Positions 9,486-51,245 of a DNA stretch of 64,000 nucleotides are shown piece after piece. Position 1 is the stretch's first letter, and every line of letters begins with the position of its first letter. Below the pieces are notes generated by a model. That model made no database searches, was not told where the DNA came from, and saw only the letters and a list, made by a program, of their open reading frames with translations. A program made the position numbers and the translations under genes. Source of the stretch: Gemmatimonadetes bacterium 2013_60CM_65_52 (lineage in GTDB: Bacteria > Gemmatimonadota > Gemmatimonadetes > Gemmatimonadales > Gemmatimonadaceae); the NCBI GenBank assembly GCA_002215645.1, contig NGFI01000005.1, forward strand, positions 114,678-178,677, written 5' to 3'.

Positions 9486-10496
9486 ATGCGAGTCCCATAC
9501 GCTGTCCTGCACAACACGCTACGCGCCGTGCTCGCGGCCAAGGGCATGTCGCCCGAGCGCGCCGACCTGTGCGCGCGCCTCTTTGCCGATGCGAATCGTG
9601 ACGGAGTCCCATCGCACGGGTTGAACCGATTCCCATTGTTCGTCTCCACCATCGAGCGGAAGCTCGTGGAACCGGGCGCCGTGCCGGTACGCGTTGCAGC
9701 GTTCGGCGCGATCGAACGGTGGGACGGCAAGCACGGGCCCGGTCCCCTCAACGCACATCACTGCATGGGCCGCGCGATCGATTTGGCGGGATTGCATGGC
9801 ATCGGCGCCGTAGCGCTGGCCAACACCAATCATTGGATGCGTGCGGGGAACTTCGGTTGGCAGGCCGCCGAGGCGAAGATGATTGGCGTCTGCTGGACGA
9901 ACACGCTGCCGAACATGCCTCCATGGGGATCCGTGAAGCCGGCCATCGGAAACAACCCGATCGTCATCGCGGTGCCGAGGGCGAGCGGGCACGTGGTGCT
10001 CGATATGGCGATGTCGCAGTTCTCGTACGGCGCGCTGTCGCTCTATCGCATGCGCGGCGCAGAGCTGCCGGTGGACGGAGGATTTGATGCCGAGGGAGTG
10101 CTGACGCGTTCACCAGCGGCCATCGAAGCGTCGAAGCGGTTGCTGCCGATCGGATACTGGAAGGGCTCCGGGCTCTCGGTGGTGCTCGACATGATCGCGG
10201 CGCTGCTGTCCGGCGGACGTGCGACCCACGAGATCCCCGATGCGGCTGCGGACGAGACGGGCCAGTCGCAGGTCTTTCTCGCCATGGATCCTTCGATGCA
10301 CGGAGTGGCGACGGATGCGTCGAATGTCGTCGATCGAATCGTCGGCGATCTGCATCGAGCGGGTGACGGCGCGCGGTATCCCGGCGAGCGCACGCTCGAG
10401 ACGCGGCGCGAGAGTTTGGCGAATGGGGTGGAGGTCGACACATCGATCTGGGACGCGACGCAAGCAATGACTGGCGCGACTCCTGCATCTGGCTGA
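9486..10496 (+). CDS. dlgD: 3-dehydro-L-gulonate 2-dehydrogenase (2,3-diketo-L-gulonate reductase), Ldh_2 family
   Basis: It aligns along its full length with E. coli YiaK/DlgD as I recall it: GVPSHGLNRFPLFV, NTNHWMRAGNFGWQAAE, PPWGS...IGNNPIVIAVP, LPIGYWKGSGLSVVLDMIAALLS. The start is the ATG at 9486 inside ORF 9426..10496. Confidence 0.85.
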   Translation: MRVPYAVLHNTLRAVLAAKGMSPERADLCARLFADANRDGVPSHGLNRFPLFVSTIERKLVEPGAVPVRVAAFGAIERWDGKHGPGPLNAHHCMGRAIDLAGLHGIGAVALANTNHWMRAGNFGWQAAEAKMIGVCWTNTLPNMPPWGSVKPAIGNNPIVIAVPRASGHVVLDMAMSQFSYGALSLYRMRGAELPVDGGFDAEGVLTRSPAAIEASKRLLPIGYWKGSGLSVVLDMIAALLSGGRATHEIPDAAADETGQSQVFLAMDPSMHGVATDASNVVDRIVGDLHRAGDGARYPGERTLETRRESLANGVEVDTSIWDATQAMTGATPASG

Positions 10497-10504
10497 GCTC
10501 GTTT

Positions 10505-42576: not shown

Positions 42577-45500
42577 ATGCCCAGGTTCGGCCCGCGGACG
42601 ATTGCTCTACTGCTCGGCGCCACCGTTGTCGTGGCGATCATCGGCTGTCGAAAGAAGGCAGTGCCGATGGAGGTCCTCTTCACCACGCGCACGCAGGCGA
42701 TGTACAGCCTTCAGCGTGGCCAGCTCGCGGAGGCGGAGACCCTCTTCAAGAAACTCGTCGACCAGGCACCCGACGACCCGCTCGGCTACGCGAACCTCGG
42801 GCTCACGTACCTTCAGCAGGGGCGCTACGCCGAGGCCGACAAACAACTGAGCCGCGCGCGAAAGCTCGATCCGGCCAACGCGGACATCGCGTTGATGCAT
42901 GCGAAGCTGTTTGCCCTGTCAGGTCGCCGCGACGACGCCCGCACACTCCTCGAGACCGTTTACAGGGGTGATCCGCACAGTCTTCACGCTCTCTACGCGC
43001 TCGCCGAGCTCGATGCGCAGGAGAAGGACGGTGCGGCGCTCGCGCGACGCGAGCAGCGACTGAAGGCGATTCTCGGGCTGGCGCCAGCGAACATTGTCGC
43101 TCGGCTGGACTTGATGGACATCGCCTCCGGGCGCGGACAGGCCGACAGTGCAGTGCGACATCTCGAGGAAGTACGACGCATACCTCCCGAGCCGCCCAAG
43201 GAGGCACTCCAGGAGATCGACCGATCCATCCAGCTCCTGCGCACCGGGAGCGTTGCCGGCGCGAAGCCATCGCTCGATCGCGTCCGACGCGCGATGGAGC
43301 TGACCAAACCATATCAGGCGTCGTTGGACGACGTGAAGTGGATCGAAGGACCGATCAGTGGCACGCCGCTCCTCACGTTCGTTCCGTCGTACTTCGTTTC
43401 GACGCACGGCAAAGGTGGAAGAGCCGTCGATTCGGTCCGCTTTCGCGACGTCACCGACGACTCGGGTTTACTCACCGCACTCGGCACTGTGGCCGGGGCC
43501 GGCACACCGACCGCTGTCGCGATCGCCACAGGCGACGTCGACGGCGACGGGCGCGACGAGCTGTTCATCTCCTACGGCGCTGCGGGACGCAGCGGCGCGG
43601 TTACACGGCTGCTTCAGATGCAGGGCGGGTTTGTTCACGATATCACGGCTCGTTCCGGTATCTCTCTGCCCACCGGGGCATCGTTCGCGACGTTTTCCGA
43701 CGTTGACAACGATGGCTGGCTCGACCTCTTCGCCATCGGCGGCGACGGACGCGGCCATCTGCTCCACAATCGGGGCAACGGAACGTTCGAGGACGTGACA
43801 GCGAAAGCAGGTGTCGGCGACGTAAAGGGCGCGACGAAGGCGCTGTTTATCGATCTGGACCACGACGGCGATCTCGATCTCGTGCTCGTCGGCAATGGGC
43901 AGCTTCTGGTGTACCGCAACAACCTCGACGGCACGTTTACGGAGGCGACGGCCGCCTTCGGCCTCGCCGACCTGGCAGGCGGTGCGCGCGACGCGGCATT
44001 CGGCGACTTCGATGGAGATGGGCGCATCGACCTGCTCGTCGCGAAGGCCGCAGGGGGGCTTGCCCTCTACCACAACGGCGGCGCACAGCGCTTCAGCGAC
44101 GTGACCGCCGCGAGCGGGCTCGCTAGCGCCGGAGTGATCGCAGGCGCCGTAGCGATCGCTGATTACGACAACGACGGCTCTCTCGACATCCTCGCCGTGA
44201 GCATGAACGGAGGAGAGCCGGCACTCTGGCACAACAAGGGGGACGGCACGTTCACGCTCGATCGTGCAGCTGGCGTGTCACTTCGGGCGCTCCGAGGCGT
44301 ATCGGCACGCGCCGCCGAGTTTGTGGACTATGACAATGATGGCCGCCTCGACGTCCTCGTGGTGGGCACGCCCGCGATCGCGACGGGGCAGGGCGTCGTC
44401 CTCATGCACAATGAGGGCAACGGCCAATTCACCGACCGGTCCGGCAGGCTTCCCGCGTCCGTCAAATCGGGAACTGCAATAGCCGCTACCGATTTCGATG
44501 GCGACGGCGACGAAGACCTCATCGTCGCGGCGACCGGTGCGGGCGTGCACTTGCTGCGAAACGACGGCGGCAACACCAGCATGGCCGTGCGCGTGCAGCT
44601 CAAAGGCTTGCGAACGGGCAGTGGAAAGAACAACGATTTCGGCATCGGCGCGCGGCTGGAGCTGCGCACGGGCGACATGGTACAAACGCGTGTGGTTACC
44701 GGCCGCGTGACACACTTCGGTCTCGGTCCGCATCTCAAGGCCGACGTTCTGCGCGTGGATTGGCCCAACGGCGTGCCGCAGACCGTGTACTTCCCAGGGT
44801 CTGACCAGGATGTCGTCGAGCGCGAGATGCTCAAGGGCTCATGCGCGTTCGCATACACATGGGATGGCACCGGCTTCCGCTTCGTGACGGACGTCATGTG
44901 GCGTAGCGCCCTTGGAATGCCACTCGGCCTCATGGGTGGCACAAGCGCGTTCGCTCCCGCCGGAGCCTCGCAGGAATATCTGCGCATTCCCGGTGACGCG
45001 CTGAAGCCGAAGGACGGACGTTACGTCATTCAGTTCACGGAAGAGCTGTGGGAGACCGCATATGCCGATGAGATCAAGCTCATCGCCGTGGACCATCCCG
45101 ATTCGGTGGATGTCTTCGTGGACGAGCGTTTCGTGCCGCCAGGCCCGGTTGCGCTCAAGCTCTTTCAGGTCGGCCGTCAATATCTGCCGCGATCCGCGAC
45201 AGACGAGCGGGGCAACGACGTCCTGCCCGCACTGCGCGCGAGCGACGATGTCTTCGTCTCGAACCTCACACCGACCCGCTATCAGGGCGTCGTCGAGCCC
45301 CACGACCTCGTGCTCGACCTCGGCGACGAAGCCGGACTCCCGGGGAGCCGTCTCTTCCTTCGCGGATGGATCTACCCGACCGACGCGAGCATCAACGTGG
45401 CCCTTTCCCAACAGAAGGACGTGAAGGTGAGCGCGCCGTCGCTCGAGGTGCGCGATACCCAGGGTCGTTGGACCACCGCCTACGCCAACCTCAGCTTCCC

Positions 45501-46113
45501 CTCCGGCAAGGACAAGACGATGGTGATCGACCTCGCCGGAAAGTTTCCGACGAAGGACCATCATGTGCGTATCCGGACGAACATGCAGATCTACTGGGAT
45601 CAGGCCTTCGTGGCGGCGGACGATCCGTCGAGCCCGGTCAAGCTGACGACCCTCGCTCCGGTAAAGGCCGATCTGCATTTCCGCGGATATTCGCGCATGT
45701 ATCGCAAGGGCGGACGCTACGGGCCGTACTGGTTCGCGTACGATGACGTGAGCCGTTCCTCGCCCTGGCGGCCGATCGCGGGTTCGTTCACCAGATTCGG
45801 TGACGTGCTGCCGCTGCTCGGAAAAGCCGATGACATGTACGTCATCATGGCTCCGGGCGATGAGGCCACCGTGCAGTTCGACGCCGGCTCCGCGGCCACG
45901 CTTCCGCCGGGCTGGAAGCGCGACTTCCTCCTTTACACCGACGGGTGGATCAAGGACTCAGACCTCAACACCGCATTCGGCACGACCGTGGGCCCACTTC
46001 CATTTCACCGCATCAAGTCATACCCGAGTGCGCCCGGCGATAGGTATCCGTCGGATGCCGCGCACCAACGGTACCTGCGAGCGTACGATACGCGAATAGT
46101 CACTCGGCGCTGA
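42577..46113 (+). CDS. TPR + FG-GAP/VCBS repeat + ASPIC/UnbV lipoprotein (CRTAC1 family), 1178 aa
   Basis: Lipoprotein signal ...VVAIIGCRKK and N-terminal TPRs. FG-GAP repeats recur (GDVDGDGRDELF, SDVDNDGWLDLF, DLDHDGDLDL, GDFDGDGRIDLL, DYDNDGSLDIL, TDFDGDGDEDL). The UnbV_ASPIC segment is NNDFGIGARLELRTGD...HFGLGPHLKADVLRVDWPNG. Confidence 0.85.
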   Translation: MPRFGPRTIALLLGATVVVAIIGCRKKAVPMEVLFTTRTQAMYSLQRGQLAEAETLFKKLVDQAPDDPLGYANLGLTYLQQGRYAEADKQLSRARKLDPANADIALMHAKLFALSGRRDDARTLLETVYRGDPHSLHALYALAELDAQEKDGAALARREQRLKAILGLAPANIVARLDLMDIASGRGQADSAVRHLEEVRRIPPEPPKEALQEIDRSIQLLRTGSVAGAKPSLDRVRRAMELTKPYQASLDDVKWIEGPISGTPLLTFVPSYFVSTHGKGGRAVDSVRFRDVTDDSGLLTALGTVAGAGTPTAVAIATGDVDGDGRDELFISYGAAGRSGAVTRLLQMQGGFVHDITARSGISLPTGASFATFSDVDNDGWLDLFAIGGDGRGHLLHNRGNGTFEDVTAKAGVGDVKGATKALFIDLDHDGDLDLVLVGNGQLLVYRNNLDGTFTEATAAFGLADLAGGARDAAFGDFDGDGRIDLLVAKAAGGLALYHNGGAQRFSDVTAASGLASAGVIAGAVAIADYDNDGSLDILAVSMNGGEPALWHNKGDGTFTLDRAAGVSLRALRGVSARAAEFVDYDNDGRLDVLVVGTPAIATGQGVVLMHNEGNGQFTDRSGRLPASVKSGTAIAATDFDGDGDEDLIVAATGAGVHLLRNDGGNTSMAVRVQLKGLRTGSGKNNDFGIGARLELRTGDMVQTRVVTGRVTHFGLGPHLKADVLRVDWPNGVPQTVYFPGSDQDVVEREMLKGSCAFAYTWDGTGFRFVTDVMWRSALGMPLGLMGGTSAFAPAGASQEYLRIPGDALKPKDGRYVIQFTEELWETAYADEIKLIAVDHPDSVDVFVDERFVPPGPVALKLFQVGRQYLPRSATDERGNDVLPALRASDDVFVSNLTPTRYQGVVEPHDLVLDLGDEAGLPGSRLFLRGWIYPTDASINVALSQQKDVKVSAPSLEVRDTQGRWTTAYANLSFPSGKDKTMVIDLAGKFPTKDHHVRIRTNMQIYWDQAFVAADDPSSPVKLTTLAPVKADLHFRGYSRMYRKGGRYGPYWFAYDDVSRSSPWRPIAGSFTRFGDVLPLLGKADDMYVIMAPGDEATVQFDAGSAATLPPGWKRDFLLYTDGWIKDSDLNTAFGTTVGPLPFHRIKSYPSAPGDRYPSDAAHQRYLRAYDTRIVTRR

Positions 46114-46149: not shown

Positions 46150-47906
46150 ATGCCTCTTCGTCCCGCCGTTCGGCGTGCGATCATCGCCGTGCCGTTCTTC
46201 GCGGCCATCGGCCTCGCGGTCCATCTGGATCACCAACCGCTCGGCGCCGTCACGGATCCGGGGCACCCCGGGTTCGCGTTGCATGATGCGACCGCCGCGG
46301 CGGGACTCCACTTCGTACATCACCGTGCGAGGTTCGACGCCAGGCTCGCCAACATCGAGCCCCACGTCGCCGCCCTTGGCGCGTCGGTCTCGGTCGTGGA
46401 CTTCGATGGCGACGGGTGGCCCGATCTCTATTTCACCAACAGCCGCTTTGGTGAGCCGAACGCGCTCTATCGAAATCGTGGCGACGGTACGTTCGAGGAC
46501 GTTGCCGCCAGCGCGGGCCTGGCCGACCTCAATCGTCCCGGCGAAGGCGTCTCGATGGGCGCCGTGTGGGGCGACTTCGACAACGATGGCCACGAGGACG
46601 TGCTCGTCTATCGGTATGGCTACCTGTCCCTCTTCAGAAACGTGGATGGCCATCATTTCGAGGACGTCACCGAGAAGGCCGGGCTCAAGCGCTGGATGAA
46701 CAGCAACGGCGCGATCTGGATCGACTACGATCGCGACGGCCTGCTCGATCTCTACGTCACCGGATATTTCCGCAGTGACATCGACCTGTGGCACGTCGCG
46801 ACGACGAAGATCATGCACGACAGCTTCGAGTTTGCGACGAATGGCGGAAAGAACCTGCTCTTCCACAATCTGGGGAACGGCAGGTTCGAGGACGTCACCG
46901 ACAAGATGGGCGTCGGCAGCACGCGCTGGACGCTGGCTGCGGCATCGGCCGACTTCAACGGCGACGGCTGGCCCGACATCTACCTCGCCAACGACTACGG
47001 CCCCGAGGAGCTCTACCTCAACGATCACGGCCGACGCTTCGTCCTGAGCTCCGCCGGCCTCGAGAGCGAATCGAAGAGCGGCATGTCGGTCGCGCTCGGC
47101 GACGCGTTCAACCGCGGCACGTTGGACGCGTTCGTCACCAACATCTCGGAGCGCGGTTACATCTTTCAGAACAACAACCTGCGTCTCAACCAGATGCTCG
47201 AGACGGGGCGCTTTCGCAACGTTGCGGAGGGTGCTGTCGCCGATGCCGGTTGGGCGTGGGGCGCGCAGTTCGGTGATCTCAACAATGACGGATCGAATCA
47301 GCTGTTCGTCGCCAACGGCTTCATCTCCGCCGACCCCAACGTGAACTATTGGTACGCGATGTCGAAGATCGCGGGCGCCAATGGGCGGCTGTTCGAGGAT
47401 GCATCGAGCTGGCCCGCGTTCGGTAACGCCAGTCTCTCCGGATATGAGCACGCCCGTGTCTACATGAATCGTGGTCTCGCCGGCTGGGTGGACGTCGCGC
47501 AGAGAGTCGGTGTCACCAACTCCTACGACGGACGCGCCGTCGCGCTCGCCGACCTGTCGAACCGTGGAGCCGTGGACGTGATAGTGGCGAACCAGAATCA
47601 GCCTGCGGTGCTGTACCGCAACCATCCGGACACTGCGAATCATTGGATCGGCCTCAAGCTCGTCGGTACGCGGAGCAACCGAAGCGCCATCGGGGCCGAG
47701 GTGGTCATCGAAGCGAGCGGCATGACGCAGCGGCGGATCGTTGACGGCGGAATGGGCTTCGCGAGCCAGAACGATCGGCGGCTCCATTTCGGCGTCGGTC
47801 GGCGCGATTGGGTCGACCGCGTGGTCATCCACTGGCCGTCAGGCACGCAGCAAACGCTGCAGCATTTGGCCGTGGATCAGATTCTCACCGTCACGGAACC
47901 GGGCCG

Positions 47907-47910
<4 letters not shown>
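46150..47910 (+). CDS. CRTAC1-family protein (FG-GAP repeats + ASPIC/UnbV)
   Basis: FG-GAP repeats are VDFDGDGWPDLYF, GDFDNDGHEDVL, IDYDRDGLLDLY, ADFNGDGWPDIY and GDLNNDGSNQLF. The C-terminal segment is SNRSAIGAEVVIEASG...LHFGVGRRDWVDRVVIHWPSG. Confidence 0.88.
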
Positions 47911-48765
<855 letters not shown>

Positions 48766-48785
<20 letters not shown>

Positions 48786-49344
48786 AGAGGCGTCTGCCTG
48801 CCTTCGGGTAGTAGCTCTCGTCGGGCAGCTCCCAGCCCAGGGTGTCAGCTAATCGATCGTAGGTATTGAAGAGGAAGGCGACGTAGAACGCGTCGCGAAT
48901 CGCTTCGCGTGTCGCCCCAGCGTCGAGCACCCGCCGAACGCCGCTCGGACCGAGCTGGTCGGGCTGCAACGTGAAGATCTCGAGGAGCCCGAGCATGGCA
49001 CGCAGCTTCTCGTCGATCGGAGCCGTCCGGTAGTCGTTCAGGATCGGCGTCATGATGCCTTGGCCCAGCGCCGTCTCCGCGACCGCGGAGTGAGCACTGG
49101 TTCAGAAGACGCATTGGTTGAGGCGCGACACGAACGCGGCGAAGATCTCGCGCTCGCCCACCGTCCACGGCGACGGTCCACGCATGACCCGCTGTGTCAG
49201 ACCGCTCCACGGGTCGCCGAAGAACTTCTTGCGGTACTTGAGCGTACGGATGACGCCGGGGGCGTGGCCTGCGACCAGTCGAATGATGCGGAGCATCACC
49301 GTGTCGAGAAGTCCGTGGCCCGAGTGAACTCTGTGAAGTCTCAT
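48766..49344 (-). CDS. carboxymuconolactone decarboxylase (AhpD-like) family protein with in-frame TGA at the CxxC position; candidate selenoprotein (CxxU)
   Basis: Track ORFs 49102..49344 and 48766..49053 are in the same frame and separated only by the TGA at 49102-49104 and 16 sense codons. Read-through gives ...SRLNQCVF-U-TSAHSAVAETALGQGIMTPILNDY.... A SECIS-like hairpin follows the TGA. Confidence 0.7.
49065..49100 (-). promoter_or_regulatory. SECIS-like RNA stem-loop immediately 3' of the in-frame UGA
   Basis: On the mRNA strand: UGA-A-[CCAGUGCU]-CA-[CUCCGC]-GGUC-[GCGGAG]-AC-[GGCGCUGG]. This is an 8-bp lower helix with two G-U pairs, a 2x2 internal loop, a 6-bp upper helix and a GGUC apical loop. 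Confidence 0.6.
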
Positions 49345-49691: not shown

Positions 49692-51245
49692 CTATCTGTG
49701 GCGGCGCGCGCGGCCCGAGGGTTGGTAGAGATCCTCGAGATTCAGGAGAAATGCGTGCCGCCTCGCGGCTCGGACGGTCTTCTCGAACTCCGGGGTGAAT
49801 CCGCTCGCCGCGACCCACAGGAGTGGAGAATCTGGTTTGGAGGCTTTATGTGCCCAGGCGACGCCTGATGTCGCGAGGCGTTCGATCATCTGCATGTGGT
49901 GATGGTGCCACGCTACGCCGAGCGGCTTCTTGTTCCACTTCACGCCGCCCGTCATGACGCCGCCGTCGCTCAGGACGCATGCGATGTCCATCTCGAGCGA
50001 GGCGCCGTCACGGTCGCGGCCCTCCCATCTCCCCCACTCTCGTACCATGGGAAGCTTCAGTCTAGTCCGGAGACGTGTGTAGGCCTGCTCCGCGATCTGC
50101 TCAAACACCGGCCCCATGTACGTGTCGAGCACGGGCGCGATGTGGGCGTTCCACACGTCCTTTGGGCTGTTGCGCTCGAGCACCGTTTCGAACTTGGACA
50201 CGTACTCGTGGTGGAACATGAAGGCGGGGTCAGCCAGGCGGTATCGGAACGGAACGGTTCCTTTTGCTCCGAGATTGCGCTCTGTCCTCACATAGCCCAT
50301 GGCGATGAGACGTTCGAGCTTCGAGCGCAGTGGTGTGTCCACGCCCAGTCCTGCGCGCTGTGCGATCTCATTGAGGTCCGTGCGGCCAGAGCCAATGGCA
50401 CGCATGATCGCCGTGTATTGCGTGGTCTCCCGAAGACTCTGCTCTTGCAGGAGCGCGGTGCGGACGAGCTCGCGCACTTCGCCGCTCGGCGCCAGCAGGA
50501 GTCGCGTTGCGTTGCCGGCAAGCGTCTCCCGCGGCTTGATGGTCGCGAGATAGCGTGGCGTACCTCCGAAGAGCCCGTACGTGTAGCAGCGGTCGCGCAG
50601 TCGGCGGAAGGGGACCATCTCCGCAGTGGTCCAGTAGTCGAACGGCTGGATCTGTCGCTTCCAGGCAAATCGCCCGTGGAGGGGCGCTCCTCCGGCATCG
50701 AGTGCCTCGAGCGTTCTGGTTGCGGAGCCCGACAGGACACACACCAATGGGCGCGCGGGCCTGCGGCGCTCCCACGCTGCATTGAGCTCGGATGCGACAC
50801 CGGACAATGCTGTCTCGGTCTCGCCGAGATATTGAAACTCGTCGAGCACCACGACGATGGGGGCGGGGCTTCTGAAATCGAAGAGCAGACGAAAGACGGT
50901 CCGCCACGTTGGGTAGTCCTCGTGTCGCAACGGCTCCCCCGACCACTGGGCCAGATCGGCAATGAGCTGTTGACGATTTTGCTCGGGCGTCGTTGCCGAG
51001 GCGGTGAAGTAGAACGCCCGATCCGTTGGCCAGAGATGCGTGAGCAGGTGCGTCTTGCCCACTCGCCGGCGGCCATAGATGAGGACGAGCTGCGGCGTTC
51101 CCTCGGCCAGAAGCGACGACAGGTGGTCCTGCTCTTCCGCACGGTCGATGATCGCGCTGGACAATGGCGCCGATGTTATGGGGGGGGTCTCTACTACTAT
51201 ACAAGTATACTTGTACAGTAGCATAGTTGTCTGCCGGGGGGGCAC
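49692..51245 (-). CDS. ATP-binding protein, archaeal-type ATPase (PF01637-like) with DUF234 C-terminal domain
   Basis: The GTG at 51245 lies 6 nt after GGGAG. ...IDRAEEQDHLSSLLAEGTPQLVLIYGRRRVGKTHLL is the Walker A region. VVVLDEFQYL is Walker B. A winged-helix-like middle region follows. The C-terminal LEMDIACVLSDGGVMTGGVKWNKKP looks like a PD-(D/E)xK motif. Confidence 0.85.
   Translation of the reverse strand: MPPRQTTMLLYKYTCIVVETPPITSAPLSSAIIDRAEEQDHLSSLLAEGTPQLVLIYGRRRVGKTHLLTHLWPTDRAFYFTASATTPEQNRQQLIADLAQWSGEPLRHEDYPTWRTVFRLLFDFRSPAPIVVVLDEFQYLGETETALSGVASELNAAWERRRPARPLVCVLSGSATRTLEALDAGGAPLHGRFAWKRQIQPFDYWTTAEMVPFRRLRDRCYTYGLFGGTPRYLATIKPRETLAGNATRLLLAPSGEVRELVRTALLQEQSLRETTQYTAIMRAIGSGRTDLNEIAQRAGLGVDTPLRSKLERLIAMGYVRTERNLGAKGTVPFRYRLADPAFMFHHEYVSKFETVLERNSPKDVWNAHIAPVLDTYMGPVFEQIAEQAYTRLRTRLKLPMVREWGRWEGRDRDGASLEMDIACVLSDGGVMTGGVKWNKKPLGVAWHHHHMQMIERLATSGVAWAHKASKPDSPLLWVAASGFTPEFEKTVRAARRHAFLLNLEDLYQPSGRARRHR
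51194..51221. repeat. 28-bp near-perfect palindrome (core TACAAGTATACTTGTA) inside the first codons of the ATPase gene
   Basis: CTACTATACAAGTATACTTGTACAGTAG has a perfect 16-bp core at 51200-51215 and one mismatched pair in the flanks. It is flanked by G8 (51180-51187) and G7 (51235-51241) runs. Confidence 0.6.

Follow-up and report, generated by a model that had tools for sequence, protein, structure and literature searches.

In a 64,000-nucleotide stretch of Gemmatimonadetes bacterium 2013_60CM_65_52 (contig NGFI01000005.1, positions 114,678 to 178,677, the whole of which is referred to as the window), the minus-strand interval 49344..48766 very probably constitutes one single gene, which encodes a 192-residue AhpD-like oxidoreductase of the carboxymuconolactone decarboxylase (CMD) superfamily with a UGA at codon 81 predicted to be read as selenocysteine (Sec) and followed by a hairpin of the selenocysteine insertion sequence (SECIS) type. 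A number of features of the locus support this reading, namely the single reading frame, the conserved TGA, the existence of cysteine homologues, the purifying selection on both sides of the codon, the constraint on the hairpin, its likeness to that of Escherichia coli fdhF and the AhpD-like fold of the protein.

Reading frame, conservation of the TGA codon and selection

The locus appears as two minus-strand open reading frames (ORFs), one of 80 amino acids (49344..49102) ending in ..NQCVF-TGA and another of 95 amino acids (49053..48766), which lie in the same frame and are separated by a single TGA (49104..49102) plus 16 sense codons. This arrangement is the one described in the original prediction, which had been made from the DNA letters alone and whose coordinates proved accurate. 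The prediction had also considered that the TGA might be a sequencing error for TGC or TGT. We have compared three independent assemblies (NCBI, ENA and JGI, the NCBI copy of the locus being contig WNFM01321885.1 of assembly GCA_009772315.1) and found the 582 nt of the gene, TGA included, to be identical in all of them, which indicates that the TGA is not a sequencing error. Also, TGA is the stop codon of 13 of the 18 neighbouring genes, and thus the codon is not reassigned in the source genome; no other credible TGA-interrupted gene was found in the 64-kb window.

A scan of GTDB using one genome per species retrieved 69 loci with 66-78% identity, all but one of which are labelled Gemmatimonadaceae, Gemmatimonadales, Gemmatimonas or Gemmatimonadota/Gemmatimonadetes, the remaining one being an 'unidentified bacterium'. 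The TGA site is covered by 67 of these loci, and together with the window and 80 soil metagenome contigs they make up the 148 sequences analysed below, in which the TGA-bearing relatives (67 genomes and 80 contigs) have protein identities of 66-94%. At codon 81 a TGA is found in the window and the 67 species genomes (68/68), as well as in each of the contigs (80/80). The original prediction had contemplated that close relatives could carry a degraded or frameshifted locus: none does among the relatives that retain the codon, with 147 of 147 sequences covering it keeping the TGA. As a separate observation, one related genome, represented by four independent sources (P0029; L005-L008, gene at 10001-10504, or at 4707-5210 in L007), has the ORF of the upstream partner described below fused in frame to selenoprotein residues ~96-192; the fusion removes the CxxU site together with the hairpin, and the deletion seems to be bounded by two 'AYG[DN]' stretches.

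The alignment of homologues places codon 81 at the second Cys of the C-x-x-C-x-x-x-H motif, as had been proposed, and the expectation that CMD/AhpD homologues carry Cys at this column is borne out by 88 of 105 more distant full-length homologues, while in a further 15 the residue is recorded as 'W'. Five of these 'W' records were checked at the DNA level (P0001, P0053, P0060, P0064 and P0079) and all five have a TGA; among distant forms, the DNA has TGA in five out of five (L162, L166-L169). The Cys forms include proteins from Mycobacterium marinum and M. persicum, that of M. marinum being 49% identical to the protein of the window.

Using the 63 full-length species sequences, we have estimated the ratio of nonsynonymous to synonymous substitution rates (dN/dS) on either side of the TGA, obtaining 0.13 upstream (codons 2-80) and 0.16 downstream (codons 82-192, leaving out codons 85-90), with synonymous differences of ~0.6 per site outside these six codons. 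The nearly equal ratios indicate that the downstream part is translated and under selection in the same way as the upstream one, so that the conservation 3' of the codon, which the original prediction had put forward as a check, is in fact found, in the form of a comparable purifying selection.

The SECIS-like hairpin

The fold of the region 49100..49065 is the one drawn in the original prediction, in which a 2x2 internal loop separates a stem of 8 bp from one of 6 bp capped by GGUC. The minimum free energy of the 61-nt segment 49110..49050 is -31.2 kcal/mol, as compared with a mean of -20.3 kcal/mol for shuffled sequences (z = -3.76), and none out of 200 dinucleotide shuffles folds as well. 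A spacer of 11 nt separates the UGA from the 6-bp upper stem, and the GGUC is found at nt 21-24 counting from the U of the UGA.

The constraint on this element is extreme at the nucleotide level. Codons 85-90 (His-Ser-Ala-Val-Ala-Glu), which spell CACUCCGCGGUCGCGGAG, are each represented by one codon only across the 63 species, and these six are the only single-codon columns among 91 conserved degenerate ones, the proportion of synonymous differences (pS) being 0.000 within them and ~0.60 elsewhere. The resulting 18-nt core is identical in 147 of the 148 sequences, with a sole variant in which a G-C pair becomes G-U, and the RNAalifold consensus keeps exactly the CUCCGC/GCGGAG stem of 6 bp with its GGUC loop. 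These results agree with the SECIS-type architecture that had been suggested, that is, a hairpin 3' of the UGA with G and U in the apical loop.

Distant forms provide a further view of the same element. The TGA is retained in four distant Sec forms, three with a GC content of 67-71% and one of 49%, and the offset of the GGUC is unchanged in them. The stem of the three high-GC forms, and also that of homologue L163 discussed below, reads CGGCGC/GCGUCG, with two pairs changed on both sides and still pairing (U-A to G-C and C-G to G-U, which are compensatory changes), and in the form with 49% GC only the four inner pairs of the stem are present. Lower stems form in L166-L168, with differing sequence. 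In the Cys form L161 both the GGUC loop and the perfect pairing are lost.

We infer from these observations that the decoding of the UGA depends on SelB and results in the actual insertion of Sec. In the proposed mechanism, SelB carrying Sec-tRNA(Sec) would bind the hairpin located 11 nt past the UGA, with its CUCCGC/GCGGAG stem and GGUC loop, and would compete with release factor 2 to deliver Sec, allowing translation to run on to the TAG at 48768..48766.

Fold, active site and partner gene

Family profile searches were carried out with Cys substituted at the TGA codon. The window protein matches the Pfam family CMD (PF02627) over residues 46-90, with 29 bits against a cut-off of 23 bits, and among the NCBIfam models TIGR01926, 'peroxidase-related enzyme', matches it best, being collinear over residues 50-171. 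At the level of PDB sequences it aligns from end to end with the AhpD-like proteins 6k40, 2prr, 2pfx, 2oyo and 3c1l, the best match being 6k40 (E = 7e-14), and U81 aligns with the second Cys of CxxC in 6k40 and 2prr. The fold itself was tested on the AlphaFold2 (AF2) model of a Cys homologue with 55% identity, P0004, standing in for the window protein (predicted local distance difference test, pLDDT, of 88.6). This model matches 6k40, 2prr, 3c1l, 2pfx and 2oyo with a Foldseek probability of 1.00 and template modelling (TM) scores of 0.72-0.80, and its best fold match is again 6k40 (TM 0.73-0.77); when normalised by query length, the TM scores against AhpD-like structures are 0.72-0.76.

The alignment of homologues shows no variation at E66 and H85, and C78 is conserved in at least 90% of the sequences. 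The Glu-x11-Cys-x2-Cys-x3-His relay is matched by residues E66, C78, U81 and H85, with Sec replacing the second Cys, the corresponding relay residues being E118, C130, C133 and H137 in M. tuberculosis AhpD and E36, C48, C51 and H55 in Pseudomonas aeruginosa PA0269 (PMC3141380). Sec81 would thus stand at the second-Cys position together with Cys78, His85 and Glu66 in the geometry of the AhpD proton relay, which makes a cycling between the selenol/thiol and selenenylsulfide states the most likely activity. In the course of this cycle the protein would reduce a peroxiredoxin-type partner or a peroxide/disulfide substrate; no AhpC-type gene adjoins the selenoprotein gene in the window.

The gene located just upstream encodes an all-helical protein of 99 amino acids devoid of Cys, hereafter the partner, and adjoins the selenoprotein gene in virtually every related locus, those with Cys forms included. 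In 114 of 122 loci the stop codon of the partner and the start codon of the selenoprotein gene overlap by 4 nt (ATGA), and the partner has 1186 homologues at E <= 1e-3 (homologous clusters). The partner protein has no match in Pfam or NCBIfam, and profile-profile searches as well as PDB profile searches gave insignificant results. Its AF2 model, which is of high confidence (pLDDT 92.4), is a four-helix protein, whose best PDB fold matches, which are weak, are 2prr, 2oyo, 3c1l and 6k40 (TMq 0.62-0.69, E 0.5-3.5); the model weakly suggests a Cys-less AhpD-like protein. Selenoprotein and partner would be co-translated and may associate in a physical complex.

The coordinates of the gene, of its predicted functional elements and of the partner gene are collected in Table 1.

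Table 1. Features of the predicted selenoprotein locus, in window coordinates.
Feature	Position	Strand	Remarks
AhpD-like selenoprotein coding sequence (predicted)	49344..48766	minus	192 codons + TAG stop (48768..48766), Sec at codon 81
In-frame UGA, predicted to be read as Sec (U81)	49104..49102	minus	second Cys position of CxxC
Active-site motif C78-V-F-U81-T-S-A-H85	49090..49113	minus	
E66 codon	49147..49149	minus	part of the AhpD proton-relay pattern E-x11-C-x2-C/U-x3-H
SECIS-like core CACUCCGCGGUCGCGGAG	49075..49092	minus	codons 85-90
6-bp stem CUCCGC/GCGGAG	49090..49085 with 49080..49075	minus	GGUC apical loop 49084..49081
Extended hairpin	49065..49100	minus	lower 8-bp stem 49100..49093 with 49072..49065
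Upstream partner gene, 99 aa	49341..49640	minus	stop overlaps selenoprotein start (ATGA)

Directly upstream of the partner and on the same strand lies a gene for a 517-residue ATPase_2/DUF234 protein of the archaeal-type ATPase kind (49692-51245, minus). Downstream of the selenoprotein gene, the opposite strand encodes two large repeat proteins of the FG-GAP/ASPIC-UnbV kind (46150-47910 and 42577-46113, plus); after them comes a 292-residue membrane protein with a faint RnfD/NqrB-like match (47808-48785), which converges on the selenoprotein gene. Neither the repeat proteins nor the membrane protein have an evident link to the selenoprotein. The neighbours differ in L005, and synteny beyond the two-gene module is therefore apparently not conserved.

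Weighing of the evidence and relation to known selenoproteins

Several results weigh against the assignment of the UGA as a Sec codon. We looked for tRNA-Sec with ARAGORN and for selA, selB and selD with the E. coli proteins as tblastn queries, and found none of them in the window, its 10-kb flanks on both sides or 160-odd related loci (~0.9 Mb). The search covered about 83 kb of the 949-kb source contig (<10%) and small pieces of metagenome-assembled genomes (MAGs), and since this is a small and non-random sample of these genomes the negative outcome counts for little; ARAGORN detected zero tRNAs in the window, and the sole tRNA across all the loci searched is a tRNA-Gly. Our survey of the literature found no report of Sec use in Gemmatimonadota or Gemmatimonas, and a 2026 database paper reports Sec pathways in 16,621 species of 88 lineages. 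As to the hairpin, the fold predicted originally stands as drawn and its upper stem and loop are conserved, but the same does not hold for the lower 8-bp stem, for which ~68% of cells pair across 67 distinct relatives without covariation above that of shuffles, and which is missing from the RNAalifold consensus fold. The upper 6-bp stem is perfect and has no bulged U, which E. coli SelB requires; a bulged U is, however, a SECIS feature specific to E. coli and not a universal one. Rfam returned zero matches, both for the whole window at gathering score and for 48950-49200 at E <= 10. Finally, the window protein scores 61.7 bits with TIGR01926, below the cut-off of 81.8 bits, the Cys relatives P0008 and P0004 reaching 96.6 and 80.0 bits, respectively; by the NCBI criterion it is therefore a divergent sister group and not a member.

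In respect to Sec use in the clade, one indirect support comes from the Gemmatimonadaceae MAG contig DATEHJ010000412.1 (L062), which carries a second AhpD-like gene about 1.6 kb upstream of the main one and on the opposite strand (710-1375, minus). This is a canonical TIGR01926 gene (104.2 bits), with an in-frame TGA in the context NRCRY-U-ITSHAEF followed by a hairpin, ACGCAGA-GUU-UCUGCGU, with a GUU loop, and by its sequence it would be a second Sec gene, with CxxU, in the clade.

Among the alternatives, a UGA read through without selenium has to be considered, either by near-cognate or suppressor decoding (as Trp, Cys or Arg) promoted by the hairpin, or as a leaky stop giving mostly the 80-residue peptide together with some full-length protein. 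A stable hairpin does sit after the stop codon, the Sec machinery was not found in the DNA read, and one homologue, L163, has AGA (Arg) at the Sec codon with an intact hairpin. Such a decoding would nevertheless leave unexplained that 88 homologues have, exactly at this position, the catalytic second Cys of CxxC, and that the fdhF-type GGUC loop and the 11-nt spacing are those expected of a SelB site and not of just any stable structure, with loop nucleotides that are invariant in 148 sequences and in distant clades. Moreover, the motif would lose its activity with Trp or Arg as the redox residue, and P0048, the protein closest to L163, has a 'W' in its JGI translation, a residue behind which TGA was found in all such records checked. 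On balance we regard selenium-free read-through as improbable. The L163 homologue itself (1332-1913; JGI Ga0633465_0024304; protein P0005), which is 52% identical, reflects either a real change from Sec to Arg or an assembly error.

Even less probable is that termination at the UGA and re-initiation downstream yield two separate small proteins, of 80 and about 95-111 amino acids. Gene callers do output products of 80 and 95 residues, databases contain many 111-residue C-terminal fragments starting with M, and an ATG comes right after the TGA in three species (L038, L046 and L051). However, 59 of the 63 species have Thr (ACN) at codon 82, the ATG found in the window at codon 98 corresponds to Met in 34 of 63 only, both of which argue against a separately initiated C-terminal protein, and the 63 sequences have no conserved start codon downstream of the TGA. 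The codons from the TGA to ATG 98 are moreover under selection at the protein level (dN/dS of 0.31, with Ala84 using four codons), and the two halves together make one AhpD-like fold, which is made by one polypeptide chain in all the Cys homologues and solved structures. A pseudogene, an assembly error or a genome with a sense TGA (genetic code 4 or 25) has hardly any probability left: the Trp written at this position in JGI translations, as if code 4 applied, is what could be invoked in its favour, and the DNA of the 'W' records is TGA in ordinary contigs of the code-11 type. Pseudogene, sequencing error and alternative code are all refuted by the agreement of the three assemblies, the TGA retained in the window and 147 of 147 relatives, the strong purifying selection on both sides of it and the use of TGA as stop in the neighbouring genes. 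The assignment of codon 81 as Sec in an AhpD-like oxidoreductase is thus the reading that we favour.

The original prediction anticipated that automated annotation would fragment the locus, and this is indeed what public records evidence. Gene callers divide it into hypothetical proteins of 95 and 80 amino acids, many entries of the family are the 111-residue C-terminal fragments beginning with M, and in JGI translations of relatives Trp stands at the Sec position, as under genetic code 4 (P0001-P0003, P0048, P0053, P0055, P0060, P0062-P0064 and P0078-P0081, among others), some JGI records even merging partner and selenoprotein into one protein of 313-319 amino acids. None of the NCBIfam models of selenoprotein type that match the window protein reaches its cut-off; NF041238 (AhpD_rel_CFYUT, 'alkylhydroperoxidase-related (seleno)protein') gives a partial and weak match (40 bits against a cut-off of 175, profile positions 224-338 of 357), which leaves the NCBI annotation pipeline with no model that marks this gene as a selenoprotein. 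As a result of the split or Trp-containing annotation and of scores below the NCBIfam cut-offs, functional and selenium-use surveys of soil metagenomes miss the gene.

A wider interpretation, to which we give somewhat less than an even chance, is that the gene represents an uncurated and very abundant subfamily of soil AhpD-like selenoproteins in a Sec-decoding Gemmatimonadaceae. The product would act as a two-gene, hetero-oligomeric selenol reductase, made of a Cys-less, half-size AhpD-like partner and a CxxU catalytic subunit, and its mRNA would contain an unusually rigid and minimal SECIS, consisting of a 16-nt hairpin in an 18-nt invariant core, without a bulged U and frozen across at least 148 sequences. 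If true, the Gemmatimonadaceae, a dominant soil lineage, would be a Sec-decoding clade. The selenoprotein gene as such would already imply that many Gemmatimonadaceae decode Sec. Its compact, invariant SECIS could be of use for studying SelB recognition beyond model organisms, and the Cys orthologues in culturable mycobacteria offer an experimental route to the substrate. The finding changes no concept.

AhpD-like selenoproteins with a CxxU motif were predicted from the Sargasso Sea and Global Ocean Sampling (GOS) metagenomes and are part of current inventories (PMC1088965, PMC2398784, PMC9312934, PMC13188914), so that the statement in the original prediction that AhpD-like proteins are among the computationally predicted Sec families refers to something long established (PMC1088965, PMC2398784, PMC13188914). 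As this selenoprotein type has been known from metagenomes since 2005, it is not new here; what is mildly new is the soil Gemmatimonadaceae lineage, the strict conservation of a partner gene, a minimal hairpin frozen in sequence and the systematic mis-annotation in public records. Judged by its sequence, the gene of the window is a divergent sister group of the known AhpD-like selenoproteins, falling below the cut-offs of the curated hidden Markov models (HMMs). With that family (TIGR01926 / COG2128) it shares the all-helical AhpD/CMD fold, a CxxU that substitutes for CxxC and precedes a His, the stem-loop directly after the UGA, the existence of Cys homologues and a function presumed by analogy. 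It differs in having a signature of its own, NQCVF-U-T-x-[AS]-HSAVAE, and in being always preceded by the small Cys-less partner gene, and its assignable close relatives (66-78% identity) come almost all from Gemmatimonadaceae and other Gemmatimonadota in soil and other non-marine samples, and not from marine plankton. The curated AhpD-related models NF041238 and NF053654 (GroundWater_YciW '(seleno)protein') have a C-x-x-U-T motif, to which C-V-F-U-T corresponds in the window.

In comparison with characterized AhpD proteins, the Glu-Cys-Cys-His spacing of M. tuberculosis AhpD and PA0269 is identical to that of the window protein, and the second Cys of these two and of Deinococcus radiodurans DR1765 (PDB 6k40) is replaced by the predicted Sec; the identity between AhpD structures and the modelled homologue P0004 is of 23-28%. 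As for the hairpin, the GGUC loop that the original prediction gave for the SECIS of E. coli fdhF is correct, as read from the K-12 genome. Both elements are located inside the coding sequence, both have a GGUC apical loop with G/U about 22-24 nt from the U of the UGA, and in both the upper helix follows the UGA after a spacer of 11 nt, with the GGUC at nt 22-25 from the U of the UGA in fdhF and 1 nt nearer, at nt 21-24, in the window, whereas their stem sequences are unrelated and the lower stem of the window hairpin is not conserved in its clade.

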